Positions 23,717 through 46,795 of a DNA stretch of 64,000 nt are shown in pieces. The notes beneath the pieces are model-generated. The model did not search any database, had not been told where the DNA came from, and saw nothing but the letters and a program-made list of their open reading frames with translations. The stretch comes from a virus. Every line of letters begins with the position of its first letter. Position 1 is the stretch's first letter. The position numbers and the translations under genes are program-made. The stretch lies in the IMG/VR virus record IMGVR_UViG_3300029258_005088; one strand, written 5' to 3'.

Positions 23717-23763
23717 TTTTATTTTCTCCTTGTGAAGTTCAGTTCTGGGTTACTCCGGCTACC

Positions 23764-24408: not shown

Positions 24409-24449
24409 TGTTAGTTGTCTCCGTGTTGATGGTTATTGACTTCCTCTCT

Positions 24450-24890
24450 CTACGCCTGAGCGTTGAGATTGTCGAACGTCGCCTCGAACGATTTGTCCGA
24501 TGCCCGCTTCTCCGCAGTGGCGGTTGGCGCAGCACTTGTGGGCCTGTCGACTGGTTTTCCTAGACTTGGAACCGATTGAGGCGGAGCGATCCGCTGCGCT
24601 GCCAACTTATCGACGAAGTCCAGCAGAGCTGTGGCGGGATTCTCTTTCACCGAAGTGATAGCCTGTTCACGGCTCGATTCCTTGAGGAAGCCGGCCTGGA
24701 CGAGATGATCCACCACTTCCGTGATCCGATTATCTTCCACGACCCCTTCCGAAGCCTGTTTCTGGCTGCTTGCGGCAGCCTCTTTCAACTGAGCGTTCTC
24801 AGTGCGAAGTTCCGTAATGAGCTCATCGGTTTCCTTGATGTAGGAAGCCATTTTCTGAGACAGTTCCGGAGGTACTTGTTGATTCGACAT
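24450..24890 (-). CDS. Small scaffold / prohead protein
   Basis: 146 aa with a coiled coil (LITELRTENAQLKEAAA) and KxA motifs (QKMAS, QKQAS, EKRAS). Confidence 0.6.
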   Translation of the reverse strand: MSNQQVPPELSQKMASYIKETDELITELRTENAQLKEAAASSQKQASEGVVEDNRITEVVDHLVQAGFLKESSREQAITSVKENPATALLDFVDKLAAQRIAPPQSVPSLGKPVDRPTSAAPTATAEKRASDKSFEATFDNLNAQA

Positions 24891-24912
24891 TGTATGTCTC
24901 CTTCTTGGTCCG

Positions 24913-26154: not shown

Positions 26155-26174
26155 AGCGTTCTCCTGGTTAATTC

Positions 26175-27626: not shown

Positions 27627-27635
27627 AACGGTCTC

Positions 27636-29225
27636 CTATAGATAACCGAGTGTCTGGAGCACGCCTTGCTGGGCGTTGTCGGCGTTGCCTACGTGATGTG
27701 CGGTAAGAGCATCTCGCACGGCATTCACCGGAACGGCGTTCTGACGGATGGCGTTCTGGAGGGTCTTCATGTCTCTGTCCACTCGCTTGTCCACCCTGTC
27801 CTCCTGCCTTTCCGCTCTGTCCCGTCGACGATCTCTGCGCTCGAGAGCCCTCTCGGCCTCGTTCGTGACGTTCGTGATTCCCTGTGTGAGAGCATCCGAC
27901 GCGGAGCCGACGTTCACGGCGAATGGCGCGACTTTCTGAGGCTTGTCCTTTTCCTTCTGAGCTTCGAGACGGAGCTTCTCCTCGAGGACTTTCTTCTCGG
28001 TGGCTTCATTGCCCTTGCGTAGCTTCTCGGATATCTCCAGCTCCTGCTTGATCTCGAATGGGTCCTTGATCCCGGAGCTCTGGAGGTTGCGGATCATGAG
28101 GTTCTTGAGAATGGAAGGCTTGTCGTATGCCTCCGGGACGCTCTGGACGGAATCGTTGTAAGCCTTCATCAGAGACTTCTGGTCGTAGTCCTTGAGGTCT
28201 GGATCGTAGAGAGCCAACAACATGAAGGTGCGCTTGGCATCGTAGGATTTCATGCGGTTGTAGAAGGCCGGATCCAGCTGCTCCTCTACCCGCTTAGACT
28301 TTTTTTTTGAGCCCATCATATCCTGCATCGCATCGGGACTCATGCCCATACCTGCCAGCATGTTGGCGATGGTATTGGCGGCCACCGATCCGACGAAGGG
28401 CTCCGCGGCTTTCTTCTCGAACATGTTGAGCTCCACCTCGGCGGACGCCATCTTCTCGGCGGCTTCGTAGAGGCTGGCGATGGATAGGTAAGGCTCCTTG
28501 GCACGGAAGACGATGTGGTTGGCCATCTTCTGGAGATTGTCCGGGACGTCCTTGCGGCTCTTGTGGGATAAAAGCGCGACCAGTCCGGGACCGGTCGTGG
28601 GATAGCCCGTGACGATGCGGCGTGCCATCTTTTCGAACTGGCGATCGGACATCCTCTGGGAGATGCCTACCACGGTGTTCAGGGACTGCTCGAAGGCGTA
28701 TTTATGCTCCTGGATCTTCATCCGTAGCTGCTCGCGCATGCCGTCACAGAATTGCTGATGCTCGATCTTGGCCTGTTTGGAAAGACGGTCTATGGTCTTT
28801 AGCTCGTCCTCGGTAGGCTCTCTCTTCGGATGGTAGTTCTCCATGGCGTCGGATTCCTCCGTTGCCGCCTTCTGCATGACCTTGTCCGAGAAATCGAAGT
28901 CTATGGCTTCGAAGCTGCCCTCTGGAAGAGCGAACTCGCTGGCCGTCTTCTGCGTGGGCTGGAAAATGTTCTGGATGACTACGGAAGGATCGACTATGTC
29001 GAAGGGCTGTGCCCTGTCTTCCTGCCCCGCGGTCTTGAAGACGTGTACCGACTTCGACTTGTTGAATGCTTCCGCCGCCCTCTTTATCATTTCCGGAGGC
29101 ATCTTGCGATCCGATGCTACCTTGGTCAAGGCTTCGTTGGGAGACATGCCGTCGTGCGTAAGCTGGATCGTATGCTCCACGTCCTTGATCAAGTCCTGTT
29201 GTTCGGGTATACTGAGCTGATCCAT
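27636..29225 (-). CDS. Putative prohead core protein
   Basis: 529 aa, helical, with many KxA motifs (TKVAS, FKTAG, QKTAS, EKMAS, EKKAA). Confidence 0.55.
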   Translation of the reverse strand: MDQLSIPEQQDLIKDVEHTIQLTHDGMSPNEALTKVASDRKMPPEMIKRAAEAFNKSKSVHVFKTAGQEDRAQPFDIVDPSVVIQNIFQPTQKTASEFALPEGSFEAIDFDFSDKVMQKAATEESDAMENYHPKREPTEDELKTIDRLSKQAKIEHQQFCDGMREQLRMKIQEHKYAFEQSLNTVVGISQRMSDRQFEKMARRIVTGYPTTGPGLVALLSHKSRKDVPDNLQKMANHIVFRAKEPYLSIASLYEAAEKMASAEVELNMFEKKAAEPFVGSVAANTIANMLAGMGMSPDAMQDMMGSKKKSKRVEEQLDPAFYNRMKSYDAKRTFMLLALYDPDLKDYDQKSLMKAYNDSVQSVPEAYDKPSILKNLMIRNLQSSGIKDPFEIKQELEISEKLRKGNEATEKKVLEEKLRLEAQKEKDKPQKVAPFAVNVGSASDALTQGITNVTNEAERALERRDRRRDRAERQEDRVDKRVDRDMKTLQNAIRQNAVPVNAVRDALTAHHVGNADNAQQGVLQTLGYL

Positions 29226-29242
29226 CTCACGTTCTCCACGTA

Positions 29243-30172
29243 TTAGTTATCAATGGCCTTGTTCATCATTTTCTCTTCCAGTGCGGTATCGGGCTGGAAC
29301 TTCGGATTGAGCGTAGGCTCCGAAATACCGCTTCTGCTGGCTATCTTCTTCTCGAGGTCCGGGTCCAGGAACGCTTCTTCAAGCGTGGTGAGGATCTGCT
29401 GTGCAGTTCCCACGGCCGATCCGGATCCATCGCCATCTCCCAGACTCTTCCTTGCCTGCTCCATGTTCCACAGCCTGTCGGCCTGATCGAAAAGGGCCAT
29501 GGCCGGTTGGCTGAAACTGGCTCGAAGACTCGCAGTCTGGTGATATTCATTATAATAGCGTCTTTTAGTGCTAATTTCTCGCATAAATTTGACATAATCA
29601 TCGCTTAAGTCGGCGCCGCCCCTGAATTTTATCAGATCGTTTATGGCGTCGAAACCTCTGACGTAGGCGAAAGCCTTCCACGTAAAGTCGCAATCCGTGA
29701 CGGTATGCGTCGTATGAAGAGCGGTCGCCAGAATGGTGCAGAATATGGCGGCGGCGTTGTCTTTGTAATGCTCTATGTCGAAGTAGACCTTGCGAAACAT
29801 CTCGATGGTTGCGGCACCGTACAACGGATTGAAGGTATTGGCTATGTCCTTGTCGGAGGCGTCCGTCATGAGCATGGCCTCTATGAGCCACTTGTATCCG
29901 CCGGTGGGCCTGGAGTCGTGGAACAGCATGAAGGCTTCGTGCATTACCGGGTACTTTATCTGAAGTCTGCCGTTGTAGTGAACCAGGTCTTCCCGGCTCT
30001 CGTAGAAACGACATGCCTCTAGAAGCCACTCGTCCTTGGCGGCCATGCTTCTTCGAATGACCTCCTCCGGCAAGATGCCTTCCACGAGGCAGCGAAGCGC
30101 GATGTTCCATCTCCAGCAGGGTGCTCGGAGATAGTTCGGCTTCGCCGTCTCTGACTTCAGGATGTTGCTCAT
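29243..30172 (-). CDS. Hypothetical protein (head module)
   Basis: 309-aa coupled ORF; no family recognised. Confidence 0.6.
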   Translation of the reverse strand: MSNILKSETAKPNYLRAPCWRWNIALRCLVEGILPEEVIRRSMAAKDEWLLEACRFYESREDLVHYNGRLQIKYPVMHEAFMLFHDSRPTGGYKWLIEAMLMTDASDKDIANTFNPLYGAATIEMFRKVYFDIEHYKDNAAAIFCTILATALHTTHTVTDCDFTWKAFAYVRGFDAINDLIKFRGGADLSDDYVKFMREISTKRRYYNEYHQTASLRASFSQPAMALFDQADRLWNMEQARKSLGDGDGSGSAVGTAQQILTTLEEAFLDPDLEKKIASRSGISEPTLNPKFQPDTALEEKMMNKAIDN

Positions 30173-32316
30173 ACGCCGATATCTTCCGACAACTGCCCGA
30201 ACAATGCCTCGGAGGCATCCGGACTGTACGCCGTCTTCTCCTTCAGGAACAGTACCAGGTCGCCCGTGCTCTTGAAGACGTCGCGGAGAGTGTCCTCGAG
30301 CTTGGCCATGTCTTCCTTTCCGTAGCGATCTTCGAACTCGTCGTTGTGCCAGTAGAACAGGAACATCATGCGTCCGATCTTGTCCATGCCGCGGATCATG
30401 TCCACGATGTAGTCCTTTCGGAGATCGGAGACGTCGGCTTTGTCGATCAGGCCCTGCAGGACACTGACGTCGAAGACTTCCTTGACGCCGGCTTCGGCCG
30501 CCTGCATCGCACGCTCGATGGCTTGGTTCGGCATCATGGATCCGTCGGAGCGGCGTGCGCCGTCCAGGGGACGTCCGCTCTTGGCCTCGAACTCCGTTCT
30601 TACCGCGGTATCTTCCTTGGCGGAAGGACCGCCCATGAACGGAACCGGGCTGTCGCCGTATGCCGCCGTATCATAGGGAGCGGCGTGCTTGATCAGGAAT
30701 CCCTTTCTGTGGCCCATGGCGTCCTCTGCCTCTTTCATCAGGCGCTGTGCCGTGGCCGCCTGGATGCCGTGACCCAGTACGAGATGCTGCAGAGCCGCCG
30801 TCTTCTCGACGAGGCCGGTGTTGTTTTCCTTGTAGAATACCTGTGCGGTACCACCATCGGCATAGATCTCGATATGGTCGACGCCCGCTGTCTTGTAGAT
30901 CTGCTGAGCCACGGTCTCGGAATTGCCCAGTAGGATGTCCGGACGGTCGTCGTCCGTGAAGATGCGGGTGCCTTCGGGGATAAATAGATAACCGTCGGTC
31001 GCTTTCAGCCGTGCGTCGGAATCCACGAACTCGACGGCTACCTTTGTCGGGTCAAGACCATCGCCCGACCTGCTCCGGGCATTGTCGCCGGCCGTATTCG
31101 CGATACGAACGTAGACAGCGCCGTCGGGGGACTTGCCTTTCGGCAGGATCTCGGTCTCGAGAACACGCGAGGGGCTTTGAACGAGCATCACGTTGGTTCC
31201 CGGTTCGAGTCCCATAAGGGCCTGCTTCGTGGCTTTGCGTCCGCCTTGGATCGCAGTGATGGCCTTCTCCGGGATGCTTGTAGCCGGCTTGGAGAAAATC
31301 GACGTGGAGTTCATCCGGAGATAGTTTCTTGGCTTGCCGATATCGATCATGGCGACGGTCCGGCCGTTGTTCTGTTGGAACCTACGGTCTTCCATACCGG
31401 GCTGGCTGAGGGACACCGGACACAGAATGATGTAGGGCTTGAAAGTGCCGTCCAACATGAGTACGTCGTAGATGCCCGGACAGGTGGGGTTCTGGATGGC
31501 GGAGGAGTTGACCTCTTCCTGGAAGACCTTCGAGAAGCTGTGACGGTCGTCCTTGACGTAGATGCCCTTGTTCATGAGAAGCTCTTTCTCGCGGTTGGTG
31601 AGATCACGGGCTTCCTTGGACATCGGATCGGTATAGAACTTGACCTTCTGGTCCAGCTCCGGCTTCTGATCCATGGTCATCTGGGCGGCTTGCTTGGCGA
31701 GACCCTCGACCTGATCCAGATCGTAGAAGCGGAACAGACACTGGGCGAAATCGGGATTGTTCAGGAAAGTGTTGAGGAACACTTGAGCGGCTTCCTTGCC
31801 GAGAAGCTTGATGTCCTCGGTGAGATCCACGGCACGATACCCATCCGGGGTCGCACGCTTGGCCATCTTCTGCCAGTCCTCCGTATCGACCAGGGAATTG
31901 GCGTCGAACGCGGCCTTGCCCATACTGGAGTAGGGCTGGTAGACTCTGGTGTTGCCGGGGGTGGCGAAGATGTCGTTCTTGTGACCTTCCTCTCCCTGCT
32001 GGAAACCGTGGCCGAGAGCCGAGAGTCCTTCCTGCTGCAGAGCGGCGATCCAGTTGTCCATGGAAGGTACGAAGAGATCCTGTTGCTTGATCCACAACAG
32101 ATCGAATCCCTTGATCTCCCCTTTAAGGAAGAATACCGGGATGTACAACCACACGCCGTTCATGACGAAAGCCGCCACGCCGACTGCCTGTGTATCATCC
32201 TCGTTCTTGTCGATTATCTGAAAACCGACTCGGTAATCCACCAACGACGGCAACCGTTCATTGATCTGCGCATCAACGAGCTGCCCAAACTTTTGTTCGA
32301 AAGTAATCTCAGCCAT
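30169..32316 (-). CDS. Putative internal head / core protein
   Basis: 715 aa with RBS GAGGA and KxA motifs (AKRAT, AKQAA, YKTAG, EKTAA, IKHAA, EKTAY). Confidence 0.6.
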   Translation of the reverse strand: MAEITFEQKFGQLVDAQINERLPSLVDYRVGFQIIDKNEDDTQAVGVAAFVMNGVWLYIPVFFLKGEIKGFDLLWIKQQDLFVPSMDNWIAALQQEGLSALGHGFQQGEEGHKNDIFATPGNTRVYQPYSSMGKAAFDANSLVDTEDWQKMAKRATPDGYRAVDLTEDIKLLGKEAAQVFLNTFLNNPDFAQCLFRFYDLDQVEGLAKQAAQMTMDQKPELDQKVKFYTDPMSKEARDLTNREKELLMNKGIYVKDDRHSFSKVFQEEVNSSAIQNPTCPGIYDVLMLDGTFKPYIILCPVSLSQPGMEDRRFQQNNGRTVAMIDIGKPRNYLRMNSTSIFSKPATSIPEKAITAIQGGRKATKQALMGLEPGTNVMLVQSPSRVLETEILPKGKSPDGAVYVRIANTAGDNARSRSGDGLDPTKVAVEFVDSDARLKATDGYLFIPEGTRIFTDDDRPDILLGNSETVAQQIYKTAGVDHIEIYADGGTAQVFYKENNTGLVEKTAALQHLVLGHGIQAATAQRLMKEAEDAMGHRKGFLIKHAAPYDTAAYGDSPVPFMGGPSAKEDTAVRTEFEAKSGRPLDGARRSDGSMMPNQAIERAMQAAEAGVKEVFDVSVLQGLIDKADVSDLRKDYIVDMIRGMDKIGRMMFLFYWHNDEFEDRYGKEDMAKLEDTLRDVFKSTGDLVLFLKEKTAYSPDASEALFGQLSEDIGV

Positions 32317-35692: not shown

Positions 35693-35926
35693 TCATGGTA
35701 AGCCCGCGTTCTTGTGCATGTACCCGTCCATGTAGCCTTGATCGAATACGGATGCTTTCTTCGACATCTTCTTGGACTTCTTCTTTTTCTTTTTGTCCTT
35801 GGGATTCATCTTGCGCTTGTTGGCGGTGGCATAGAACACGCGCTTGCCTTCTTCCTCGCCGTAACGCTCCTGCATCTCTTTCATGACCTTGTCGCCACTG
35901 CCTTTGTAATATTCCTTGACCGGCAT
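35693..35926 (-). CDS. Small basic protein ending in the GYMDGYMHKNA motif
   Basis: 77 aa; start overlaps the upstream stop; RBS GGAG. Confidence 0.65.
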   Translation of the reverse strand: MPVKEYYKGSGDKVMKEMQERYGEEEGKRVFYATANKRKMNPKDKKKKKKSKKMSKKASVFDQGYMDGYMHKNAGLP

Positions 35927-37173
35927 TACACAACTCCCTCTCTAAGTTTGTTATCTTTATTTGCAATGGTCATTCCACTGGATAATGCCTTAAGCACCAG
36001 TTTAAACGCATTTCTATCTGTCAGGTACAGATACCTCATAGCGTCCGTCTTGGAGTGCTTCTTTCTAAGAGAATCATACTTATCCAGTGCCTTTCCGACC
36101 GCTGCGTATTCTTTCTTGTCAAAAGGTGACGGGATGCCCATGGATTTTGCTCTCTCATTGGACCTATGGAAAAGCCTTGCTCTACTCTGAGTCTTCCCTG
36201 GTTTTTCAGATTCCTGTAACCAAATCTTAGACGGACCTCCTAGACGGCTGAAATTTTCCGATCTGGTCATATTAGCGAAGTCTCCAACGAACTTCTTCCA
36301 GTTATCGTCTCCTTCCACCTTGGAGGCTATGTACTGTTTGTATTTATCTACCATATTGCCCCATTCCTCATTCAAAGAAGAGTCTGGGTATAGTGACTGT
36401 TTCACAGGACTGTCATTAGTTATTAAGGCAGTGTTCTTCTTAGGATCGGCCCAATAATTCATTATGCTCCTAAGTTCTTGATACGGCTGTGCCTTGTTCT
36501 TCATATCACTCTCTAACCAAGCCCTCTCTTTATCCGACGGCTCGGTCTTCCATGTCCGTCCATGGAATCGGGCGGCCCTTCTATAGTCTTCGTCTCCTAC
36601 CGGAAGCCCTTTCGCAAGATCGAACGCTGGATACTTGACGTCTGGTCCATCTATATCCGGATTGTGTCCTACAGTATAGGCAGGTGCGCGGCTAACATAC
36701 TTTGGAGGCCTTGTGTCTATCCAATGTCCGGTTCTTCCCTTCCAATTCAGATGACCAAAGTCTTTCATTGCTTTCAGCAGTGCCGGATGACAACCTCCTC
36801 CAAGGTTGCAGGCGTCAATATTCAAAGCATAGTCACCCTTCGAGGGCACTGCCCTGCTGACGTGATTCATGATTGTTGAATTTACTAAGTCCTTGTTGTC
36901 TACAGAGTAGGACGACCTTCCGCCACCATGCCCGTGTATACCTACCGTGGGAAGGCCTTTTACCGACCTAAATTGAGATGGGTCATCCTTAAGTCTAGCG
37001 TCGAATGCGTTATCCGGTCTACTGGGAGAATATGCCGTCGTGTATTTCTCGTTAATAGGGGTTGGTCTCCTTATATTATACTTCCAGGCGCTTTTGGCTT
37101 TTGACTGGTTATCTCCGGCTCTCTTGTTCATATAGCCGTCCTGGTAGCCTGTTCTATAGGACTTATCGGTCAT
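35926..37173 (-). CDS. Leader-tagged protein with a clan-CD (caspase / C80-like) cysteine protease domain
   Basis: Leader SYRTGYQDGYMNKRA; strand-His VGIHGHG and strand-Cys LNIDAC dyad pattern. Confidence 0.55.
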   Translation of the reverse strand: MTDKSYRTGYQDGYMNKRAGDNQSKAKSAWKYNIRRPTPINEKYTTAYSPSRPDNAFDARLKDDPSQFRSVKGLPTVGIHGHGGGRSSYSVDNKDLVNSTIMNHVSRAVPSKGDYALNIDACNLGGGCHPALLKAMKDFGHLNWKGRTGHWIDTRPPKYVSRAPAYTVGHNPDIDGPDVKYPAFDLAKGLPVGDEDYRRAARFHGRTWKTEPSDKERAWLESDMKNKAQPYQELRSIMNYWADPKKNTALITNDSPVKQSLYPDSSLNEEWGNMVDKYKQYIASKVEGDDNWKKFVGDFANMTRSENFSRLGGPSKIWLQESEKPGKTQSRARLFHRSNERAKSMGIPSPFDKKEYAAVGKALDKYDSLRKKHSKTDAMRYLYLTDRNAFKLVLKALSSGMTIANKDNKLREGVV

Positions 37174-39222
37174 TCACAGCACTCCCTTGGTCGCTCTCTG
37201 CAGAGATATTCGTTTTCCGCTCTCGAAGAGGGGCTTGACCTTGTCCAGCCTGGTCCCTGTCTGGCGGGCATACTGGCTGTTTCTGAAAGATTGTCTGAGG
37301 CGCTCGGCGTTTTCCGCCGTGGGATTGACCATGAGAGCGTTCACGGCGTTATGGCCCTGTTGGAACTCCTTGAGATTGTCTCCCAGTGCATAGGCATGGA
37401 TCTTGAGCCAGTTCTGCATCATGGGGTTGAGTTTGCGCCAGTTCGGGTTCCAGGCATCGAGCTGTGTCGGGACGATTTTCTCGAGGTGGTGCTTGGTCGC
37501 CGCCCAATCCTCTTTGGTCTTGATGGTGCCTTTGCCGCTGCGGAGCTGTTTGAATCTGTTGTTCCCCCAGATCTTGGAAAGCTTGGAGGTGTTGGCCGGA
37601 CTCATGTAATGCCCGGTACCGATCGTGGGATAAGGCTCCTTGACGCCTTCGGCATTGGTGACGTGCTTGGCGGTAGGGCTGAAACCCTCGGCCTTGCTGA
37701 GCCACGGGTGTATGGCTTCATGGGCCTTGTCTCCGGCAGTCTTGGACGCCATTCTCGTAGAAGGATCTTTATTTACGAGCCCCAGGAAATCTTCTGCCAT
37801 ATCCCATAATAAGGCTTCCCATTCTTTACCCTTCCCTTCCCTCTCCATTATGCTGCGCAATGCCCGTAGATCAAAAGAATCATCAACCATAGGCTTCAGT
37901 TCACGTTTTATCTTTCTGTCCGGAGACGTCGCCCACTGGAGAAATGCAAAGGCTTTCTTCTTATCGCTGACGTCTACTCCCATGTGACTTGCGAGTGCCT
38001 TGAGATTACCTAATCTTGCTTCTCTTTCTATCTGCCGCATGGTGTAGGGAGCGGTGTGTCTCTTACTTCGAGCCTCTATGAACTTTCCTTTTTCATCCGT
38101 ATCCTGCACCATCTCGCTCATCTTATCGTGAGCCCACGTGTCCGCACTAAGGTGTCTCTTGTTTCTAGCCGCATTCTCCCTTACGACATCTTGTGCCGTT
38201 CCCTTTCCTTCGCCCTTAAGCGGGTACCATTTTCTGGCATGCTGAAGTACGTGTCGATACTCATGAGGAAGGAGTCGAGCCGTATGAGGCCTTATCCAAA
38301 TATCTGGGATGCGTTTACCAGGAGAGTATATGAACCCTCCTCCGCTTTTGTCGGGAGCGTCCTCATTTCTAAGAATCTTGTACGGAAAAGGCCTGTCCAA
38401 TGCCTTGTCATCCAGCCTCATGGCAAACCTATTCTTATACCCTTCTTTCTTCCTATACTCTCTGGCCTGCTCAAGGGACTTCTTGAAGGCTTCTGGACTA
38501 GGATACGTACTGCTTATTACTCTCCTAGGCGTATCCACTCCTGAGACAATAGGCTTTACGACAGGGACGGCTTTCTTAGAAATTTCTTTACTAGCATCTG
38601 CAGGTACCTCTCCCTTGTCTCCGGCAGTCTTCGCTATGATCTTGCCGTCCTTCAGCTCGTAAGGAGCCCATACCTGGCCTTCTACATAGTTGCCCGTCAG
38701 CCTGGGCAGCATGTCGAGCTTGCCTGCTTTCCTAAGCTCCACCAAGGTCATCAGCGTCTTGACCTCCTCACTGAGATTGCTCTTGTTGTGTCGCTCTCTA
38801 CGGAGATAATCGAAGGAGTCGCCGGGCGAAAACGTGGAAGCCTGCAGAAGCTCTTCGTCTATAGGATATACCTGGGTCGACTTGATATCGTGACCCCATG
38901 CCTTCTTCTGCTTGTCGGTACGGAAATACAAAGGATGCTTCAACTGTACCTTGTCGCCGAGTTTCTTGACGGCCTCCTCTCGTAGCGCCTTTTCAAGTCG
39001 AACACGGTCCTGCTTGTACCGATCGGTGTTCTTGTCTGGGGTATGCTCTTTATACCACTGCAGAACCTGCTCCTGCTCCTCTGGAGGCATATCGAGGAAA
39101 TTTCCGGGAAGCTTGCCTCCACGACCATAGTGATATCCCTCGACCTTGGCAGTCTTGTCCATATACCCGTCGAGATATCCCGAGGATCCAGACAACAGAA
39201 CTGCTGTGGTTACCGACATCAT
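37174..39222 (-). CDS. Three-domain polyprotein: ART-like / zincin metallopeptidase / T4-type lysozyme
   Basis: Domains separated by KTA motifs at aa 23-25, 198-200 and 494-496. YHY...FSPGDS...YVEGQVW; HEYRH...EREARLG; AEGF...PTIGTGH. Confidence 0.7.
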   Translation of the reverse strand: MMSVTTAVLLSGSSGYLDGYMDKTAKVEGYHYGRGGKLPGNFLDMPPEEQEQVLQWYKEHTPDKNTDRYKQDRVRLEKALREEAVKKLGDKVQLKHPLYFRTDKQKKAWGHDIKSTQVYPIDEELLQASTFSPGDSFDYLRRERHNKSNLSEEVKTLMTLVELRKAGKLDMLPRLTGNYVEGQVWAPYELKDGKIIAKTAGDKGEVPADASKEISKKAVPVVKPIVSGVDTPRRVISSTYPSPEAFKKSLEQAREYRKKEGYKNRFAMRLDDKALDRPFPYKILRNEDAPDKSGGGFIYSPGKRIPDIWIRPHTARLLPHEYRHVLQHARKWYPLKGEGKGTAQDVVRENAARNKRHLSADTWAHDKMSEMVQDTDEKGKFIEARSKRHTAPYTMRQIEREARLGNLKALASHMGVDVSDKKKAFAFLQWATSPDRKIKRELKPMVDDSFDLRALRSIMEREGKGKEWEALLWDMAEDFLGLVNKDPSTRMASKTAGDKAHEAIHPWLSKAEGFSPTAKHVTNAEGVKEPYPTIGTGHYMSPANTSKLSKIWGNNRFKQLRSGKGTIKTKEDWAATKHHLEKIVPTQLDAWNPNWRKLNPMMQNWLKIHAYALGDNLKEFQQGHNAVNALMVNPTAENAERLRQSFRNSQYARQTGTRLDKVKPLFESGKRISLQRATKGVL

Positions 39223-39230
39223 ACCTTCCC
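39148..39230. repeat. 83-bp direct repeat, copy 1 (RBS + start + leader)
   Basis: 6 mismatches against 40206-40288. Confidence 0.95.
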
Positions 39231-40280
39231 TTTGTGTTTGCCGGGCTGCTGGTCCCTAGCCATAAGACTGCCCTCATCGATGAGGTCCTGCATCAGCTCA
39301 CGTTCCTCTGGCGCCAGGGCCTTGAGAGCCTTCTCTGCGTCCATGGTCTCACGCAGCTTGTCGTACTTCTTGATGAGTGGGTAGATCTTCTTGTAGTACT
39401 CGTCGTAGAACTTGAGGTAGCCGGCGTCATCTTCCTTGGCCTTGGACCTGCCGTACTCGTTGTCGCTGTATCCGTAGTTCCGCGCACGCTGGGCCTTGAG
39501 AAATTCGGCTGTGCGTGCAACCTGCGAAGCATTGAACTGCCCGGTACGCGTCTTTGCCTTGGCCGCATCCGTCTGGCGCTTTATGGAACTCTGTAGGTGG
39601 TCTGCTTTCGGAGCGTAGGGCATCATGCCCATGCTTATGAAGGTGCCTTCCCCACCCCGCATATTCTCTCGTCTGGTTTCTTCATGCTTCCTATCCGCAC
39701 CCTCGAAGGTGTTCGGATACTTGCGCAGTGCCGCACGCATCTTGGCATCGTTGAGCCTCCGATTAGCACTTCTGATGGCGGCCTCGGTTTCATACCTTTT
39801 GCCTGCTATTCCAGTGTGTATCGTCTTGGGGAACGTCTTGGGGTCCGGCAGTGCCGCACGCTCGGCTTCCAGCATCTTCAATCTCCTGGCATCGATCCGC
39901 CTCCCATGCGCACCTTGCTCCCTATTGGTCCACTCTATCATCTTTCGGAGACGTGCCTGATCTGCAGGGTTCTTCGCAGCCTTGAGCTGCTTCTCGTAGT
40001 CCTGGCGTATCTTATCGTAGCCCTGGTAATCCTTCTCCATGCCCTGCAACTGTTGATGAGTAACATTCTTTGGCTTTTCCGCCTTGATTGGCTTCGTCTT
40101 GGATGTAGTTGTCTGCGGAACCTTGATCTTACCGTAGTTCTTGGAGACTCCGCCTTCGACGGGCAGTGCTGCATGCTTGTTCAGCTCGCTCACGAATCTC
40201 ACGCCGGCAGTCTTGTCCATGTACCCGTCGAGATATCCCGAGGATCCAGACGACAAAAATGCTGTGGTCACCGACATCAT
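39219..40280 (-). CDS. Leader-tagged basic hypothetical protein
   Basis: Start reassigned to ATG 40280 (ATGA overlap; 353 aa). Leader MMSVTTAFLSSGSSGYLDGYMDKTA, then a second leader-like segment RFVSELNKHA. Confidence 0.65.
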   Translation of the reverse strand: MMSVTTAFLSSGSSGYLDGYMDKTAGVRFVSELNKHAALPVEGGVSKNYGKIKVPQTTTSKTKPIKAEKPKNVTHQQLQGMEKDYQGYDKIRQDYEKQLKAAKNPADQARLRKMIEWTNREQGAHGRRIDARRLKMLEAERAALPDPKTFPKTIHTGIAGKRYETEAAIRSANRRLNDAKMRAALRKYPNTFEGADRKHEETRRENMRGGEGTFISMGMMPYAPKADHLQSSIKRQTDAAKAKTRTGQFNASQVARTAEFLKAQRARNYGYSDNEYGRSKAKEDDAGYLKFYDEYYKKIYPLIKKYDKLRETMDAEKALKALAPEERELMQDLIDEGSLMARDQQPGKHKGKV

Positions 40281-40288
40281 GCCTTCCC
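40206..40288. repeat. 83-bp direct repeat, copy 2
   Basis: Matches 39148-39230 at 77 of 83 positions. Confidence 0.95.
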
Positions 40289-41887
40289 CATAAACTCCAG
40301 TGTTTTCTGAACCAGCCAAGACCGTCCGGAGGCTTCCTTCTTCATAGACGAGCCTTCTTCTTCGGGAGCTCCGTCCATTTCCTCGACCTCTTCCTCGCCT
40401 TCTTCGCGGAAGTCCTCATCGGTTGGATCCAGCTCCTCGAGCAGAGCTTCCAACTCCCCGACGTGTACCTTCTCCTCGTCGGCTATATCCTGAAGAATCT
40501 GTGCGGCACGCCTGTTCTCGGTGCTGTCGGCCACTGTTTCGTAGTGCTTGATCGCCTTCTGCTCTTCTATGATGGCGTCTCGAACGGCACGAGTCAGTTC
40601 ACGACGACCCAGCCTGGGAAGCTCCTTGACGTTCTCCATGCTACTCGCAGTCTTGGCTATATGTCTCGTCTCGAAAAGCACCTTGATCAGTGCCGCCCGT
40701 TTCTCCTGGCTTATCATAGGTGCCTCCAATTCTGAATACGCGTATTCACTTTTGCCTTCCTTACCTTCCATCTTCTCGAGGTCTGTGTAATAATCAGGCA
40801 TTTCTGTAAGATGATCCAACGCGATTTCTTCTGCAAGCTTCTGGTCTCTTGTATGTTCCTTTTCGACCTTCTTCCCCTTCTTGAGCTCTTCTTTGTCGAC
40901 ATCCTTCGGAGTTACGTTTTCTTTGTCGGCAAGGCCCGTAGTATCGGATCCGACTTTCTGCAGGGGCTTCAACACTTTCGAGGTATCCCCACGGGCGACC
41001 CACTTCTTGAACTGGTCCATGGTAAGTGCGGTGATGGAGCCGAGACCGTCCCAGCCTTTCTCGTAGTTGTCTAGATATCCCTTGCGGGCATCCTTCTCGT
41101 TGGTGAAGCCCAGCATGCACTTGTGCTCGTCGAAGCCTTTGCCTCCTTTGTTCGTCTGGTTGACGACGAACACCATCTCAGAGTCTACGTCCGGTCCGAT
41201 GAAGACGTCTACGTGATCGCCGTCGGCGTCGGACTTAGTCCGCTTGATGTAGCCGTAGTGATGCTTCATCAGGGTCTTCCATTCCGTACCGTCCGGGGAT
41301 TTGCCTTTACGATACTGGCCCTTTAGATTCTCGATGGTGATGTCCATACCATGCAGGCGGGTATGACCCTTGCGATAATTACCTGCTTCGGCCTGTTCCT
41401 TGGACTTCGGCTGAACCGGCGTGCCCTTGATCTTTAGGGAAGCTTCTTTTTCACCCGGCTCCTGCGAAGGGGCTCCATATATCTCGGCCAGTTGTAGCTT
41501 TCTCACCTCCTCGTTACTTAGATAGTTGCCCTCGTCATCGATGGGATGATATAAGTCCTCTCCGCTATTCAACTGCTCGGTCTCGAACTCGGTCAGATAA
41601 CCACGCCTCATTTCCCACAATTTCTTTTCTAGGTACTTACCCAGTGCGTCCTCTTCTTCCGTACCTCCTGTGCCATAAGACGAAGGTATCGCCGCATTTA
41701 TTTTTGTATACAGCCTCAGTCTTTGTCCTGGAGTGAGTTCTTCCCAGTGTGCTTCTTCCAGCTCATTCTGGGCTATTCCTGGTACTGTCTGTGTGGCTCC
41801 TTCGTCTACCACAGCGTCTCGGGCCTCCTTCTGCTGCTTCGCCTCCTTCCACGAAAGGATCATATTCGTAAAATCTGTTCTAGTCAT
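40277..41887 (-). CDS. Polyprotein: unknown domain / InPase / DUF5661-like / ferritin-like
   Basis: Start reassigned to ATG 41887 (536 aa). GNYRKGH...IEN...YGYI...DGDHVDVFIGP...FDEHKCMLGF; VEKEH...IALDHLTEMPDYY; EEQKAIKHYE...EEKVHVGEL. Confidence 0.75.
   Translation of the reverse strand: MTRTDFTNMILSWKEAKQQKEARDAVVDEGATQTVPGIAQNELEEAHWEELTPGQRLRLYTKINAAIPSSYGTGGTEEEDALGKYLEKKLWEMRRGYLTEFETEQLNSGEDLYHPIDDEGNYLSNEEVRKLQLAEIYGAPSQEPGEKEASLKIKGTPVQPKSKEQAEAGNYRKGHTRLHGMDITIENLKGQYRKGKSPDGTEWKTLMKHHYGYIKRTKSDADGDHVDVFIGPDVDSEMVFVVNQTNKGGKGFDEHKCMLGFTNEKDARKGYLDNYEKGWDGLGSITALTMDQFKKWVARGDTSKVLKPLQKVGSDTTGLADKENVTPKDVDKEELKKGKKVEKEHTRDQKLAEEIALDHLTEMPDYYTDLEKMEGKEGKSEYAYSELEAPMISQEKRAALIKVLFETRHIAKTASSMENVKELPRLGRRELTRAVRDAIIEEQKAIKHYETVADSTENRRAAQILQDIADEEKVHVGELEALLEELDPTDEDFREEGEEEVEEMDGAPEEEGSSMKKEASGRSWLVQKTLEFMGKA
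40733..40748. repeat. TGAATACGCGTATTCA palindrome (copy 2)
   Basis: Exact 16-bp palindrome in an inter-domain linker (encodes EYAYS). Confidence 0.95.
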
Positions 41888-44800
41888 TCGTATTCCTCTC
41901 TGACCTATGCGTGTAACCGTCCATATACCCGTGCGAGGCGTATTTCTGTCCACTAGGAAGTGATCGGTTGTCCACTACCAAAGGAAGCTCCTCTGAAAGC
42001 ATGTCAATGAACTTAATCTTCTTATCCGGAGTCAGTGTGTCGTAGTATTCAAGGAACTGCCTGGCACCGTGCTTATAAGGACGGTCTCCTTCGAAGAACT
42101 CCGTCAGTGCCTTTTTCGCCTCTGCCTTATTCCTGGCTCTACCTCCCTTGTTGTACCACCACGCTTTGATATCTCCTAGCCGTACCTCTCTCTCCTTATC
42201 GTCGATGAGGAAATATGCTACGTCGGACTGGCGGTCACTCCATTTGCTATCTACTATGAGTTTTCCATCGGCGTCTTTAACCCGCTCTTTCGTCTTGGGG
42301 TCCGTTTTAAATACGGTCCTTGTCGGGGTCATGTCAGGTTCGAACTCTTTCATATAGGCCATACTTCTCTTGAGTATATCCGGATGCCTTGCGTGTCCTA
42401 GGTTTTTGTTCAAACCAACCGTCTGATAAAAGCGAGGGTATTGTTTGTCCCCTACCTCGGGTATCTGGAAATTATGCCTGCTCTCGTGGATTATGGAATG
42501 ACCTAGGTCGGACACGTCTTTCTTTCCTCTAGCTCCTACGGTCATAGTAGGATGAACGCTCTCTACAGGACCGCTTTTCAAACCGCCCCCCTCCGGATAC
42601 ACGAAATCACTTTTGGTTCCTGCATTATGCTGGGCTCCGTACCACATCTTAGGGTCGAACTTCATCGGAATATACCTTTGAGGAAATCTAGTGGGCATGT
42701 CGATGCGCTCGACCCGCATGTTCGGAACCATGCCCGTGGCCTTCTGGTAGGCCAAGGCATCCTGAACGGACTTGTCTAGATTGCTGGGCTCTCCTGGCTT
42801 GTACACGCCTTGGTGATACCATCCACCGTACTGGTGGTGAAGAGGGAAGTACGTATCTACCTTTCCCTTGTTTTTACCCTTGTCCTCGCCCTTCCAGCCC
42901 CATTCGGCCATCTCCCAGGCTTTTTTATTTCTCTCGGCCCTTGCATTGAACTCCTTCTGCTTGGCTGCCTGAGCCGCCATCATCTGCTTCTTGATGGCCT
43001 CTATCTGCTTCTGATACGCACCTATCCTGTCTTGGTATCCCTTACCCATGTATTTCATCTGGTACTTATCCGTGGCAGGTGCCTTGGTGTCTACGTCAAC
43101 GGTCTTGACGGGAGGAGTTAATACAGGGTTGTTCACGGCCTTCTTGGCAGGTGTCTTGGAAGCTTGTTCGGCAATCGAAGGAACAGCGGGAGCCGCTCCG
43201 GAACTAGCCTCCTTCTGCTGTTTCTTCTTCTGACGTTCTTGCCATTCCTCGTACTTCTTCGGATTGTCCTTGAAGTACTGCAGCATATCGCCGCATGCAA
43301 CTTTCTGGACCTTGCCCGGAGGTCTTATCATCAGAGGGTACGGTCTATTGCGTTCCTCGTCCATAGGCATGATCCCGGACTTCTCGTCACCGGGAAGGAA
43401 CCCGTGCTTCCTGTAAAGGGATATCAGAGCTGCCAGACGGGCTTCGTATTCCTCGTCGTCGAAGTTCTCGTGCTCCTGCAGGTTCTCGTCCAGCTCGAAC
43501 GGCCCGGCTCTGAGAGCCAGGGTCTTCTTCTTGTTGTCTTTGACGATCTGTTTCAAAAGCTTGTCGGCAAAGCCCTTTCCTCGAAAATGAGGATCCGTGT
43601 GGATGTCTCCGACCACGCTGTAGTCGCCGTTGTCCTTCACGGTTGCATAGGATGCATCCACTCCCTTGTCGGTTACGAAATACTCCTTGACCGGTCCGTC
43701 CCCGTGAGTGGATACCTTGGCCTTCTTCTGCATGTCGCCACAGGCCACTTTCTCGTTGTCTATGAGATCCCAGGCGTCGTCCTTGGACATACCTTTCTCC
43801 TGAAGATCCCACGCTCTACGTATCCTGTCCTTTGCAGCGGAAGTCTTCACAGAGATGTCTACGTCCGGACTCGCCGCTGTAGCCGTATGCTCTCCCTCGT
43901 CTCTCTCCTTGAACCGAAACTCTTCGGATTCCGACAACTTCCTAAGTAGACGTACCAGACGAGCCCGCTTCTTGGGATCGTCCTCGAAGATGTGATAGTC
44001 CCAGTCCCTTCCTTCCGGATGAGGTCTTCCGTAAAAATCAGCTCTTCCCCTAGAGCCCGTCAGTTCTGCCTTACGGATCAGACGCTTCTTGAGGTCTGCC
44101 TTCTTCTGCATATTACCCGTATTCTTGTAGACCTTCTTCGCTATGTCATCCCAGATCTCTCTGCAGTGCTGGTCCTTGATGCACGTGATCTGCAGCTCCA
44201 TGCCCAGATGCTCTCTGCACCACTTCTTGATGGCGCGTCGGGCCACGCCGTCGTTGTCTCCGGCCACTCGAGCGGTGAATATCTTGATCTTCTTGCCCCG
44301 GCCGATATAACGCTTCACGCGGTCGACCATCTTCTGGATGGGCGCTCCGATGACGTCCGGACCCTTCCAGCCGTCGTATTTGGCCAGAGTACCGTCGAGA
44401 TCCACGCCGATCCACTCCTCGTCGGAAGCCTCCTTGTCCATCCCCAGAGGATCTCCGTAGTCCATCGTAAGCTCGGTATCTTCCGGAATGTCCCGCAATG
44501 CCTTGAAATAGCAACCATCGGGAGCGGGGTCGAATACGACGTTTGGATCCGATGCGTGGTTGGTGTAGCGTGCTCCGATCGTGCGATGCAGCTCCCTGTC
44601 CAGTGCGAGTGCGAACGACTCTCCCCGTTTTACGGGCTTGGTGACGAACGCGCCTTTTCCCTCTATGTCGGAATCCCTTATCTCTATGGGATCCTCGTCT
44701 GGCTGGGGAATGAGGTCGTCTGCATACTCCGAGTTTTGCCTATGCTCTTCCGCACTCGTTCCGCTCTCCTGCAGGTAGGTCTCGAAATCTGAACCCGTCT

Positions 44801-45026
44801 TCTGGAACAGAGGCGTTGCGACCTCTCTAGGAAGATGGAAGCGGAAACCGCTGGGACGATGGGTGACTCCGACGACGTCCCTCTCCCTGGAATCGATCTC
44901 GAAATCGCCGGGGTTCTTTCGTATGAGATCCGTTGCCAGCCTATGCTTCTCGGTATAGTTCCGTCTGTCCGACTCCTTCTTCAAAAGGAGAAGCGACTGT
45001 ATAAGCTGTCCTCGTCTTTGGTTCAT
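41880..45026 (-). CDS. Polyvalent polyprotein: small N-domain / SET / HAD / nucleotidyltransferase / GNAT / zincin
   Basis: GKGAF...RYTNHASDPN...ELTMDYG; IGVDLDGTLA...IFTAR...WDD; TGSRG...DWDY; DPHFRGKGFA...LYRKHGF; HESRH...EREVRLG. KxA-like motifs lie at each boundary. Confidence 0.8.
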   Translation of the reverse strand: MNQRRGQLIQSLLLLKKESDRRNYTEKHRLATDLIRKNPGDFEIDSRERDVVGVTHRPSGFRFHLPREVATPLFQKTGSDFETYLQESGTSAEEHRQNSEYADDLIPQPDEDPIEIRDSDIEGKGAFVTKPVKRGESFALALDRELHRTIGARYTNHASDPNVVFDPAPDGCYFKALRDIPEDTELTMDYGDPLGMDKEASDEEWIGVDLDGTLAKYDGWKGPDVIGAPIQKMVDRVKRYIGRGKKIKIFTARVAGDNDGVARRAIKKWCREHLGMELQITCIKDQHCREIWDDIAKKVYKNTGNMQKKADLKKRLIRKAELTGSRGRADFYGRPHPEGRDWDYHIFEDDPKKRARLVRLLRKLSESEEFRFKERDEGEHTATAASPDVDISVKTSAAKDRIRRAWDLQEKGMSKDDAWDLIDNEKVACGDMQKKAKVSTHGDGPVKEYFVTDKGVDASYATVKDNGDYSVVGDIHTDPHFRGKGFADKLLKQIVKDNKKKTLALRAGPFELDENLQEHENFDDEEYEARLAALISLYRKHGFLPGDEKSGIMPMDEERNRPYPLMIRPPGKVQKVACGDMLQYFKDNPKKYEEWQERQKKKQQKEASSGAAPAVPSIAEQASKTPAKKAVNNPVLTPPVKTVDVDTKAPATDKYQMKYMGKGYQDRIGAYQKQIEAIKKQMMAAQAAKQKEFNARAERNKKAWEMAEWGWKGEDKGKNKGKVDTYFPLHHQYGGWYHQGVYKPGEPSNLDKSVQDALAYQKATGMVPNMRVERIDMPTRFPQRYIPMKFDPKMWYGAQHNAGTKSDFVYPEGGGLKSGPVESVHPTMTVGARGKKDVSDLGHSIIHESRHNFQIPEVGDKQYPRFYQTVGLNKNLGHARHPDILKRSMAYMKEFEPDMTPTRTVFKTDPKTKERVKDADGKLIVDSKWSDRQSDVAYFLIDDKEREVRLGDIKAWWYNKGGRARNKAEAKKALTEFFEGDRPYKHGARQFLEYYDTLTPDKKIKFIDMLSEELPLVVDNRSLPSGQKYASHGYMDGYTHRSERNTND

Positions 45027-45730
45027 TTCTTCGCACGTTCCGCCATCTTGGCAAGAGCCTCTTTCTTCTTTTTCTCCTCGTCCGCCTCTCCGGAGGCGAG
45101 TGCGAGTTCCTTTTTCTGCAGCTCGAGTTCCTTCTTCTGCAGAGCTTCCATGGCCTTGAGCCTGTTCTGGATCTTCTTCCGTTCGATGACGGTCATTATC
45201 GTGAGAACGAGGGGAAGGCCTATGGCAACTCCTCCCGCTGCGTAGGCATATGGCTTGATCTGGTTCCAGGTGTCCTGTCCCGCCGATGTTATGCCTCTGT
45301 TGATCTGTCCCTGGATATCCAAGTCGGAGTTTGTCTTATCGACTATCTCCTGAACTTTATCCCGGGCGCGGTTGAGACTGGCGTCCACTAGCTCTCGAGA
45401 ACGCCTATCAGCCAAGTCATAGCTCTTGTTTGTCTGCTCTCTCACTCTTTCCGCAGCGGCGTCGATTATGTCTTCATACTCCCTTTTATACAGTCTTCCT
45501 GTCTCTTCAGCCGTGCGGGCAAGCTCGTCTCGCCACTCTCGTCCCTGGTCTCGCCTGGTACGGCCCACTAGACCTTCCACGCCTTTGGAGACTGCCCAGC
45601 CAGGACCTTCCGTGACAACGGTCTTCGCCACGTTCCATGGCGAGAACTTCTCCTTGAGACTTTCATACAAGCGATCACCGAACCCGGATTCCTTGTGCAT
45701 GTAGCCAGCTATGTATGCTTCGTTGTTCAT
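45023..45730 (-). CDS. Leader-tagged coiled-coil protein with one TM helix
   Basis: MNNEAYIAGYMHKES leader; AYAAGGVAIGLPLVLTIMTVI helix. Confidence 0.65.
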   Translation of the reverse strand: MNNEAYIAGYMHKESGFGDRLYESLKEKFSPWNVAKTVVTEGPGWAVSKGVEGLVGRTRRDQGREWRDELARTAEETGRLYKREYEDIIDAAAERVREQTNKSYDLADRRSRELVDASLNRARDKVQEIVDKTNSDLDIQGQINRGITSAGQDTWNQIKPYAYAAGGVAIGLPLVLTIMTVIERKKIQNRLKAMEALQKKELELQKKELALASGEADEEKKKKEALAKMAERAKK

Positions 45731-45739
45731 ATTGATCCT

Positions 45740-46795
45740 CTACTGTGATTGGTACTCTTTGTCTATCTCCTCGTACCACTTCTCCTTGCTGCGCTCGTCC
45801 TGCCTGCCCTGGGCACGCTGGCTCATGTAGGTCAGTATGGCGGCAGGGATCGAGAGAGAAGCCGCGCCTATGCCGGCACCCACCACCGGCGCGTTCTTGG
45901 AATCGGGCATCGCGAGATCGCCTATCGCACCACCCGCTATCGATCCGGGTATTGCCGCCAGTACGGCGACGAGCGCGGCCCTTGCGGTTGGCGACATCTT
46001 GGATATGACCTCCGGCTCTCCGAGAACCTCCAGCGGCATGGAAGGATCGTCGGTAAGCGCCTTGTCGGCTCTCTTCTTGACGTCCTCCACGCGGGGCCCG
46101 ACGAACTTGTTGCCAATGGTGCCGACCACGGTCTGCGGACCTTTCTTCTTGGCATATTTGACGAGATAACCGTCCATATATCCTACGTTCATGATAGATC
46201 CTTCCTTTATGTTGAACAGCTCCGCGGGCAGTCTCATGCGCTTTCCGGGATCGACGCCTGGATGGTCCATCCGTCTTCCGTTGATTCCCGAACGGGAGGC
46301 CAGGCTCTGCGTGAAAGTGTTGGAGTTCTTGCCCCAGCCCAGAAGATTCTTTATTATTCCGGGATACCGAACGGGATCGTTCTTCGTGTTCCCTCTATAG
46401 GCTCTGCCTCTGGCCATGACCTCGTCGATCTTGTCGTCGAGAATATCCTCCTGAACCTCGGTACGGAACACGGTGGCATCCTCTCCCGGATCGTCGTTTA
46501 CGTACCGACGCACGCGCTCGAGATCCTTTGGATGGTTCCTGTGGTACTTCATCACGGCCCTGCCGAATATGTTCTTGATGATGCCGGCATCCGCGTAACC
46601 ACCGACGACCATTCCCTTGACCCCGTTTCCAAGATCCTGGAGCTTGCCCTTGAATCGCTCGACGTCACGAGGTACGAGAACCATGAACTGATGCCTGAAG
46701 TTACCCGGAGCCGGAACCTTTCGGGAACCGATGTATATGCCCGGAGCAAGCCTCTTTCCTCTGAACTCGTTTCCTGTTTGTCTTACGCCTGGCAT
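45740..46795 (-). CDS. Permuted papain-like domain fused to a leader-tagged membrane module
   Basis: RHQFMV...YP...NSNTF in the N-half. Internal AAGGAAGG RBS and MNVGYMDGYLVKYA at 46192, followed by two hydrophobic helices. Confidence 0.55.
   Translation of the reverse strand: MPGVRQTGNEFRGKRLAPGIYIGSRKVPAPGNFRHQFMVLVPRDVERFKGKLQDLGNGVKGMVVGGYADAGIIKNIFGRAVMKYHRNHPKDLERVRRYVNDDPGEDATVFRTEVQEDILDDKIDEVMARGRAYRGNTKNDPVRYPGIIKNLLGWGKNSNTFTQSLASRSGINGRRMDHPGVDPGKRMRLPAELFNIKEGSIMNVGYMDGYLVKYAKKKGPQTVVGTIGNKFVGPRVEDVKKRADKALTDDPSMPLEVLGEPEVISKMSPTARAALVAVLAAIPGSIAGGAIGDLAMPDSKNAPVVGAGIGAASLSIPAAILTYMSQRAQGRQDERSKEKWYEEIDKEYQSQ

Follow-up and report, generated by a model that had tools for sequence, protein, structure and literature searches.

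The stretch of viral DNA analysed here, 64,000 nucleotides of IMG/VR virus record IMGVR_UViG_3300029258_005088 (hereafter the window), carries at 41880-45026 a gene for a predicted polyvalent cargo protein of 1048 amino acids (aa), designated P0001. In this protein a SET methyltransferase, a HAD phosphatase and a likely GNAT acetyltransferase share one chain, and several of the linkers between its modules contain a Lys-x-Ala (K-x-A) motif, which also recurs in the head proteins of the same phage, including its major capsid protein and its candidate prohead protease. In this paper, we describe the gene, its domains and its linkers, compare them with their homologues, and weigh the possibility that P0001 is a polyprotein that is cut by the head protease of the phage.

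The P0001 gene and its source

The window holds a single co-oriented run of phage genes on the minus strand, to which all coordinates below refer, and was divided into a head block (22736-32316), a cargo block (34213-57174) and a tail block. Re-translation confirmed the open reading frame (ORF) at 41880-45026, on the minus strand and 1048 aa in length, and the order and coordinates of the domains agree with those of a first-pass annotation of this DNA, which is thus borne out in both respects. The ATG start of the gene falls within an ATGA at which it overlaps the gene upstream, and its stop codon in turn overlaps the ATG of the downstream gene (ATGACTAG), which encodes an InPase/DUF5661/rubrerythrin protein and has its real ATG at 41887. 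P0001 is located in a hypervariable block, with the gene for a beta/beta'-N fusion of RNA polymerase on one side and the beta'-C gene on the other, and it is also on record from a metagenomic contig of 201,176 bp. Judged from its sequence, the source is an uncultured phage of ~201 kb, whose distant relatives are Salmonella phage Arash, Vibrio phage D69 and, at a still greater distance, Bacillus phage G. A tblastn search of 50,697 phage records returned no homologue of P0001 beyond its HAD module, and a scan of viral contigs turned up no relative; the homologues found by other searches are referred to below as P0002 to P0008 and P0017.

Domain composition of P0001

The chain begins with a small N-domain (aa 1-79, 44790-45026), which ends in the sequence QKTGS. 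This domain is common to P0002, P0003 and P0008 and is internal in P0006 and P0007, and it matched nothing in Pfam or PHROG at E<=10. It is followed by a minimal SET methyltransferase domain of ~83 aa (aa 113-195, 44442-44690), which scored 34.2 bits against the Pfam family PF00856 (cut-off 22.4), the match being limited to the C-terminal half of the profile. Both SET signatures, NHxxxPN and ELxxDY, are intact in P0001 (as NHASDPN and ELTMDY), and the assignment of a predicted SET methyltransferase holds.

The assignment of the next module (aa 203-304, 44115-44420) to a predicted capless HAD-IIIA phosphatase of the T4 polynucleotide kinase (Pnk) type holds as well, on the evidence of PHROG, tblastn and profile searches. 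It matched PHROG families 1238 and 415, while tblastn matched it to phage phiRSL1 and to Rhizobium and Burkholderia phages, in one of which the gene is annotated as a HAD hydrolase. Seven homologues show no variation in the HAD motifs I-IV (DxDGT, T, K and DD), and a profile built from seven sequences matched, among the proteins of known structure in PDB, entry 1xpj (E 0.0012), a 126-residue protein deposited as hypothetical, and the phosphatase domain of T4 Pnk (E 0.017-0.07). The NCBIfam HAD-IIIA model gave a weak hint of 13 bits only, under its cut-off. The GNAT acetyltransferase domain (aa 438-570, 43317-43715) is likely: its match to Acetyltransf_7 (PF13508) has an E-value of 1.3e-5 and a score of 25.9 bits, just under the curated cut-off of 27, the acetyl-CoA motif RxxGxA is present, and the homologous region of P0002 gives an equivalent score.

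Between the HAD and GNAT domains lies an orphan insert of 126 aa (aa 311-436, 43719-44096), which is absent from P0002 and is enclosed by two repeats encoding MQKKA. It comprises a putative nucleotidyltransferase (NTase)-like GS...DWD motif, helices, and the first of two copies of a KVACGDM peptide. An NTase of the Pol-beta fold is expected to show the pattern hG[GS]-x(9-13)-DhD on a pair of beta-strands, together with a match to a hidden Markov model (HMM) or a fold. In the NTase-like part of the insert (aa 311-395), GS and DWD are 15 residues apart and follow a polar rather than a hydrophobic strand, and there was no match in Pfam or PHROG (both at E<=10) or in a phmmer search of PDB sequences. 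A word-index search with aa 308-440 returned zero homologues, and an AlphaFold2 model of aa 300-440 from the single sequence had no strands, reached a predicted local distance difference test (pLDDT) score of 52 and was unusable. The ESM Atlas feature search gave NTP_transf_2 (0.81) as a sub-threshold lead for this part, and LPD23 (0.83) as another lead under the threshold. With the spacing and the strand off the pattern, no HMM or PDB match, no homologue and a failed model, we do not count the insert among the Pol-beta-fold NTases.

The C-terminal module (aa 729-1020, 41967-42842) is also an orphan and is zincin-like by motif only, the motif being HESRH at aa 847-851 (42474-42488). An exhaustive phmmer search of 1.8 billion representatives with the C-terminal 444 aa found P0017 as the sole homologue, which keeps the motif as H-E-x-R-H, and an HExxH would be expected by chance 0.06 times in the P0001 chain. 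The module has no match in Pfam or PHROG at E<=10 and none to any family of peptidases, those known from polyvalent proteins among them, no third metal ligand of a zincin was identified in it, and an AlphaFold2 model of aa 605-1048 from a two-sequence alignment was unusable (pLDDT 40). It has no significant similarity to another HExxH protein encoded in the window at 37174-39222. Per-domain searches of HMMs and PDB sequences matched three of the five enzyme classes that had been read into the chain, i.e. SET, HAD and GNAT, while the NTase and the zincin, with no HMM match and models of pLDDT 52 and 40, rest on their motifs.

The K-x-A motif in head proteins of the lineage

The motif in its strict form, K-x-A-[S/A/G], is concentrated in the head block of the window, where 31 matches to K.A[SAG] contrast with 3 to the reversed motif, 1 to A.K[SAG], 1 to R.A[SAG] and up to 12 to K.[SAG]A, the least favourable of the permuted controls; in the tail block it is not in excess. 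When four head-core proteins were shuffled one by one, 5-8 sites per protein were observed against 0.3-1.1 expected. Among the residues that follow K-x-A at the 54 head-block sites are S (17 cases), A (11), N (4) and G (3), but not C or D at any site. The cultured relatives present the same picture, with 7, 6 and 5 K-x-A-[SAG] sites in Arash gp220, gp223 and gp225, respectively, and 10 sites against 1.0 expected in the product of D69 gene 271. In Arash and D69 the enrichment is confined to the genes in the segment that separates the capsid gene from that of RNA polymerase beta', and Arash gp217, which is annotated as a DNA helicase and is abundant in virions, has zero sites.

The motif is not merely frequent but conserved in position. 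The homologue of the major capsid protein (22736-23716) has K-x-A-S at aa 27-30, which aligns with K-E-A-G of Arash and D69, so that the motif is in register at these residues in three phages. In the candidate prohead protease (26175-27626, 483 aa), in which His123 and Ser175 are conserved, K-x-A flanks the catalytic domain on either side, and an alignment with its homologues, Arash gp222, the product of D69 gene 270 and phage G gp19, places the motif in register right before and right after this domain in all four phages. Phage G gp19 has been annotated as a head maturation protease (PMC12484599), and the genes around the protease follow the same order as in Arash, i.e. protease, scaffold-like genes, major capsid protein and tail. 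As far as sequences can tell, K-x-A is a genuine feature of head proteins, dependent on the order of its residues, across three genomes and, around the protease, in phage G as well. Its enrichment, together with its register in the capsid and protease proteins, is the pattern that one would expect of a prohead-protease site, comparable to L/I-x-E in T4 and A-x-E in Salmonella phage SPN3US. A Cys-rich insert (CxxC...CxH) follows Ser175 and is conserved in Arash gp222, the D69 gene 270 product and phage G gp19; it may be a zinc ribbon within the head protease.

Linkers of P0001

Each of the domains of P0001 had been described as flanked by K-x-A-like linkers. Three of the eight linkers concerned match the strict motif (DKEAS, QKEAS and QKYAS), four match a relaxed form (QKTGS, QKKAD and the two KVAC sites), and the last, KTSAA, does not match. 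DKEAS (aa 197-201, 44424-44438) forms the joint between the SET and HAD domains, with a predicted cut between A200 and S201. QKEAS (aa 604-608, 43203-43217; predicted cut between A607 and S608) precedes a low-complexity linker and a long helix, which occupy aa 609-728. QKYAS (aa 1027-1031, 41934-41948; predicted cut between A1030 and S1031) precedes an 18-aa tail with the motif GYxDGY. Among the relaxed sites, QKKAD (aa 307-311, 44094-44108) lies at the C-terminal joint of the HAD domain, where P0003 has a strict K-T-A-A; QKTGS has the equivalents K-M-A-A and K-Q-A-G at orthologous positions; and QKVACGDM (aa 574-581, 43284-43307) begins a short conserved helical piece that is also found in P0002 and P0008.

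All three strict and all four relaxed sites fall outside the domains, which make up 64% of the chain, and the residue at P4 is D, Q or E at all seven, matching the head sites. The three strict sites share the P4-P1' pattern of the phage's own head-block sites, and when P4 is taken into account, as [EQDSM]K.A[SAG], P0001 has 3 matches against 0.43 expected (p about 0.02).

The reported double occurrence of KVACGDM was confirmed, and the two copies are only 68% identical in DNA over 37 nt. That the peptide has been kept while the DNA diverged to this extent indicates selection on the peptide, and it rules out a recent DNA duplication as the origin of the two copies. An exact direct repeat of 14 nt, which encodes MQKKA, occurs at 43720-43733 and 44098-44111 and brackets the 126-aa insert that is missing from P0002. 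The repeat marks the gain or loss of a module by recombination at linkers, from which it follows that the linkers are recombination joints as well.

Homologues of P0001 and module exchange

A word-index search with full-length P0001 returned seven matches at near length, one of them the query itself, and seven at shorter lengths. The homologues are mosaic: P0002, P0003 and P0008 are close, P0004 and P0005 are ~40% identical, and P0006 and P0007 also belong to the set. The HAD module has K-x-A on both sides in four homologues, regardless of which module is its neighbour. A SET domain between the N-domain and the HAD domain is found in P0001 only; in P0004 and P0005 SET and HAD co-occur, with K-x-A at all three edges. 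The breakpoints of homology coincide with K-x-A in P0002, P0003, P0008, P0004 and P0005, and so do the edges of Pfam domains in P0002 to P0005 and in the protein downstream of P0001. Moreover, the InPase and ferritin-like modules that form the separate next gene in the window are fused into the chain in P0002 and P0003. Such an exchange of modules exactly at the motifs fits cassettes that would be bounded by cleavage sites.

The more distant homologues widen the repertoire of modules. P0006 (1263 aa, on a 224-kb contig) and P0004 and P0005 (on a 205-kb contig, L009) join the N-domain and HAD modules to a 2H/Acb1-like phosphoesterase (of the anti-CBASS type), or to a LigD phosphoesterase, a ligase OB domain, an acylphosphatase, SET and GNAT. 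On L009 the polyvalent protein lies ~4 kb from an RNA polymerase gene that bears an intein.

The GY peptide and the cargo block

Seven otherwise unrelated ORFs in the neighbourhood of P0001 (35926-57174) begin with the same N-terminal leader, [G/A][Y/F]xxGYxxKx[A/S]. These ORFs start at 37173, 39222, the 40280 region, 45730, 53277, 54808 and 57174, and an internal copy is found in the ORF at 45740-46795. P0001 carries a GYxDGY variant within its last 18 residues (41883-41933), directly after the strict QKYAS. The leader also heads P0017, a stand-alone HExxH gene from another metagenome, and two ORFs of L002, a close relative of the window. The GY peptide has the look of a tag that targets proteins to the capsid and can be removed, with the cleavage motif behind it; it was not found in the stretches of Arash, D69 and phage G that were examined.

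When the cargo block was compared with that of L002, the flanking core genes proved to be 74-84% identical, and most cargo genes had a partial match or none. The ORFs at 37174-39222 and 39219-40319 have no counterpart in L002 (window 35926-45730 against L002 7267-15091). Proteins encoded near P0001 bear InPase and other domains of the polyvalent type, and P0001 itself combines disparate activities (SET, HAD and GNAT) in one phage ORF. In Arash, mass spectrometry of virions has shown both RNA polymerase subunits to be among the most abundant proteins (PMC10585845). The composition of P0001 and its surroundings thus support its prediction as a multi-enzyme protein of the polyvalent type in a virion-cargo context.

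Another terminal peptide was noticed. About 17 residues of the form SW[L/I]V...L..[I/M]G follow a strict K-E-A-S at the C-terminus of the InPase/ferritin-like protein of the window (40277-40330), P0002 and P0003, and are conserved in the three. Each of these proteins ends in an encapsulin-ferritin-like domain, and the peptide is reminiscent of the cargo-loading peptides of encapsulins.

Discussion

We infer the packaging, the cleavage and the targets of P0001 as follows. P0001 would be targeted into the prohead and be cut at K-x-A-[S/A/G], after the Ala, by the head-maturation protease encoded at 26175-27626. Cuts at the three strict sites (A200/S201, A607/S608 and A1030/S1031) would yield the N-domain with SET, the HAD-insert-GNAT part and the HExxH module, the last freed of the tag; the joints with near motifs (K-T-G-S, K-K-A-D and the two K-V-A-C) are perhaps cut too, in which case every module would become separate. 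Ejection would then carry the released pieces into the host along with the DNA and the virion RNA polymerase, and there they would act by modifying proteins or nucleic acids of the host. The scissile bond is placed after the Ala by analogy with the P3-x-P1 register of the T4 and phiKZ sites and with the Ala-Ser precedent of assemblin. The consensus of herpesvirus assemblin is cut between Ala and Ser, which fits K-x-A followed by S. The protease is the expected reader of the motif, as the motif is common to phages that have neither P0001 nor the HExxH module, and its reader should therefore be the head protease that they share. That P0001 is a capsid-targeted cargo protein cut by this protease at the three strict sites at least, and perhaps at all joints, is the most likely of the readings considered here, at about even odds.

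A number of observations weigh against it. The protease assignment itself is weak, with an E-value of 3e-4 for the PHROG head-maturation-protease match and of 1e-4 for the tblastn match to phage G gp19. All mapped prohead-protease cuts of SPN3US but one remove N-terminal propeptides and do not separate retained domains (PMC10052503), and in the cargo block as a whole the excess of K.A[SAG] is only about 1.5- to 2.5-fold (23 against 9-16 in the controls). The remaining points can be read together as those of a full-length, uncut multi-enzyme chain, packaged or not, in which K-x-A marks flexible linkers or recombination junctions and resembles the head motif through composition or ancestry. Such a chain would agree with the plain motif not being significantly enriched in P0001 (3 K.A[SAG] against 1.43 expected), and with only three of the eight claimed linkers being strict, the four relaxed ones departing from the head motif by C or D at P1' or G at P1, which are absent or rare at head-block sites. 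It would also agree with the exact 14-nt MQKKA repeat around the insert that P0002 lacks, which is the footprint of a recombination, and recombination alone could keep the linkers alike. There is precedent for it too, in that the virion RNA polymerase of phage N4, a polyvalent protein, is packaged uncut, and plasmid polyvalent proteins are likewise delivered uncut (PMC5512222). However, linkers that serve merely as joints would not explain why KVACGDM has been retained as a peptide with its DNA diverged to 68%, why K-x-A stands at domain edges even in P0004 and P0005, or why it is this very motif that aligns in the capsid proteins of three phages and the proteases of four, and we consider an uncut chain unlikely, though the likeliest of the rivals.

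Two further explanations do without the head protease. If the C-terminal HExxH module were a metallopeptidase, it might release the other domains itself, either within the head or once injected; no domain is commoner in polyvalent proteins than the zincin-like peptidase, for which autoprocessing has been predicted (PMC5512222), and the conservation of HExxH in the only homologue, set beside its low chance expectation, would be in keeping with this. On the other hand, the module has neither a match to the HMMs of peptidase families nor a fold or third metal ligand to show, P0017 comes from a stand-alone gene, has a leader of its own and so does not have to process any chain in cis, P0002, P0003 and P0008 retain the K-x-A joints without the HExxH module, and Arash and D69 have the motif in head proteins, again without that module. 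We regard self-cutting as very improbable. Somewhat less so, and still improbable, is that P0001 is not virion cargo at all and acts as a cytoplasmic enzyme of host takeover or nucleic-acid repair, its gene neighbourhood being a coincidence. P0001 indeed does without the N-terminal GY leader of its neighbours, and its HAD domain resembles the phosphatase domain of T4 Pnk, which is part of an intracellular repair enzyme; yet the gene belongs to a run of genes in one orientation, whose start and stop codons overlap, between the genes of the virion RNA polymerase and the head, its product ends in the GYxDGY tag behind a strict motif, and relatives fuse the same modules to InPase and ferritin-like modules of the polyvalent type.

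Cutting of P0001 by the head protease would have known systems on either side of it. Iyer, Burroughs, Anand, de Souza and Aravind described polyvalent proteins in 2017 and proposed that proteolysis probably processes them (PMC5512222); they ascribed the processing mainly to zincin-like peptidases acting in cis, and to assemblin-like peptidases only where these are fused at the C-terminus (PMC5512222). P0001 and its relatives share with these polyvalent proteins the union of unrelated enzymes in one phage chain (SET, HAD and GNAT here; InPase, MazG, LigD phosphoesterase and 2H/Acb1-like domains in the relatives), the mosaic, fast-shuffling architectures, the predicted delivery with DNA and the proposed proteolysis. 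They differ in that the motif at the joints of P0001, which capsid and scaffold proteins have as well, is ascribed to a separate head protease, and in that the HExxH module of P0001 matches no described peptidase family. In giant phages, processing of head and ejection proteins by the prohead protease is established, mostly as the removal of N-terminal propeptides (PMC10052503). As in T4 (gp21, with the internal proteins and Alt as substrates), phiKZ and SPN3US, a three-residue P3-x-P1 motif recurs among the proteins of scaffold and capsid, in the protease and in ejected proteins (PMC10052503, PMC9026906); in those systems, as is predicted here, the same protease removes short targeting peptides, and the capsid takes up a virion RNA polymerase along with other enzymes. 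The motif is different, being K-x-A with a predicted cut before S, A or G in the present phage and [L/I]-x-E or A-x-E, cut after the E, in the others, and the predicted sites of P0001 lie between retained enzyme domains in the manner of a polyprotein, unlike those of SPN3US. Given the 2017 proposal (PMC5512222) and the established role of prohead proteases (PMC10052503), the claim in the first-pass annotation that domain release by the prohead protease would be a new processing model was overstated. What appears to be new is the K-x-A code, its conservation in cultured phages and its placement between retained enzyme domains.

The candidate protease resembles those of the assemblin and HK97 types in being a putative Ser/His head-maturation protease with candidate self-release sites on both flanks of its catalytic domain and a conserved His followed by a Ser, here about 52 residues apart; it differs from them in its very weak sequence similarity and in the Cys-rich insert after the Ser. 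Its nearest counterparts are those of Arash (OQ632216), D69 and phage G, which have a homologous protease and the same order of head genes, with a capsid protein that can be aligned in Arash and D69, and which also share the fused beta/beta' RNA polymerase that for Arash has been found in virions.

Extended to the lineage, the proposal is more tentative. The present phage, Arash, D69 and, distantly, phage G may use a previously undescribed prohead-protease code, K-x-A cut before S, A or G, and in the present phage and its close relatives the polyvalent genes may be true polyproteins, whose cassettes, bounded by cleavage sites, pass from phage to phage, whose loading depends on a removable GYxDGY tag at one end or the other of the chain, and whose enzymes are freed within the capsid before ejection. 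We hold this wider proposal to be possible, though short of probable. The conservation of the code in the cultured phages Arash, D69 and G makes it testable without isolating the source phage.

If the joints are cut, Lys-x-Ala would be a new specificity among the few known codes of prohead proteases, and cassettes with a cleavage site at each end would be units in which the mixture of domains in polyvalent proteins can evolve, so that it would be irrelevant whether genes are fused or split; relatives do carry the same modules in either state. Should the code prove true, the mature virion proteome of uncultured phages would become predictable from sequence, and the SET methyltransferase, the Pnk-like phosphatase and the GNAT acetyltransferase of P0001 would be flagged as likely injected effectors.

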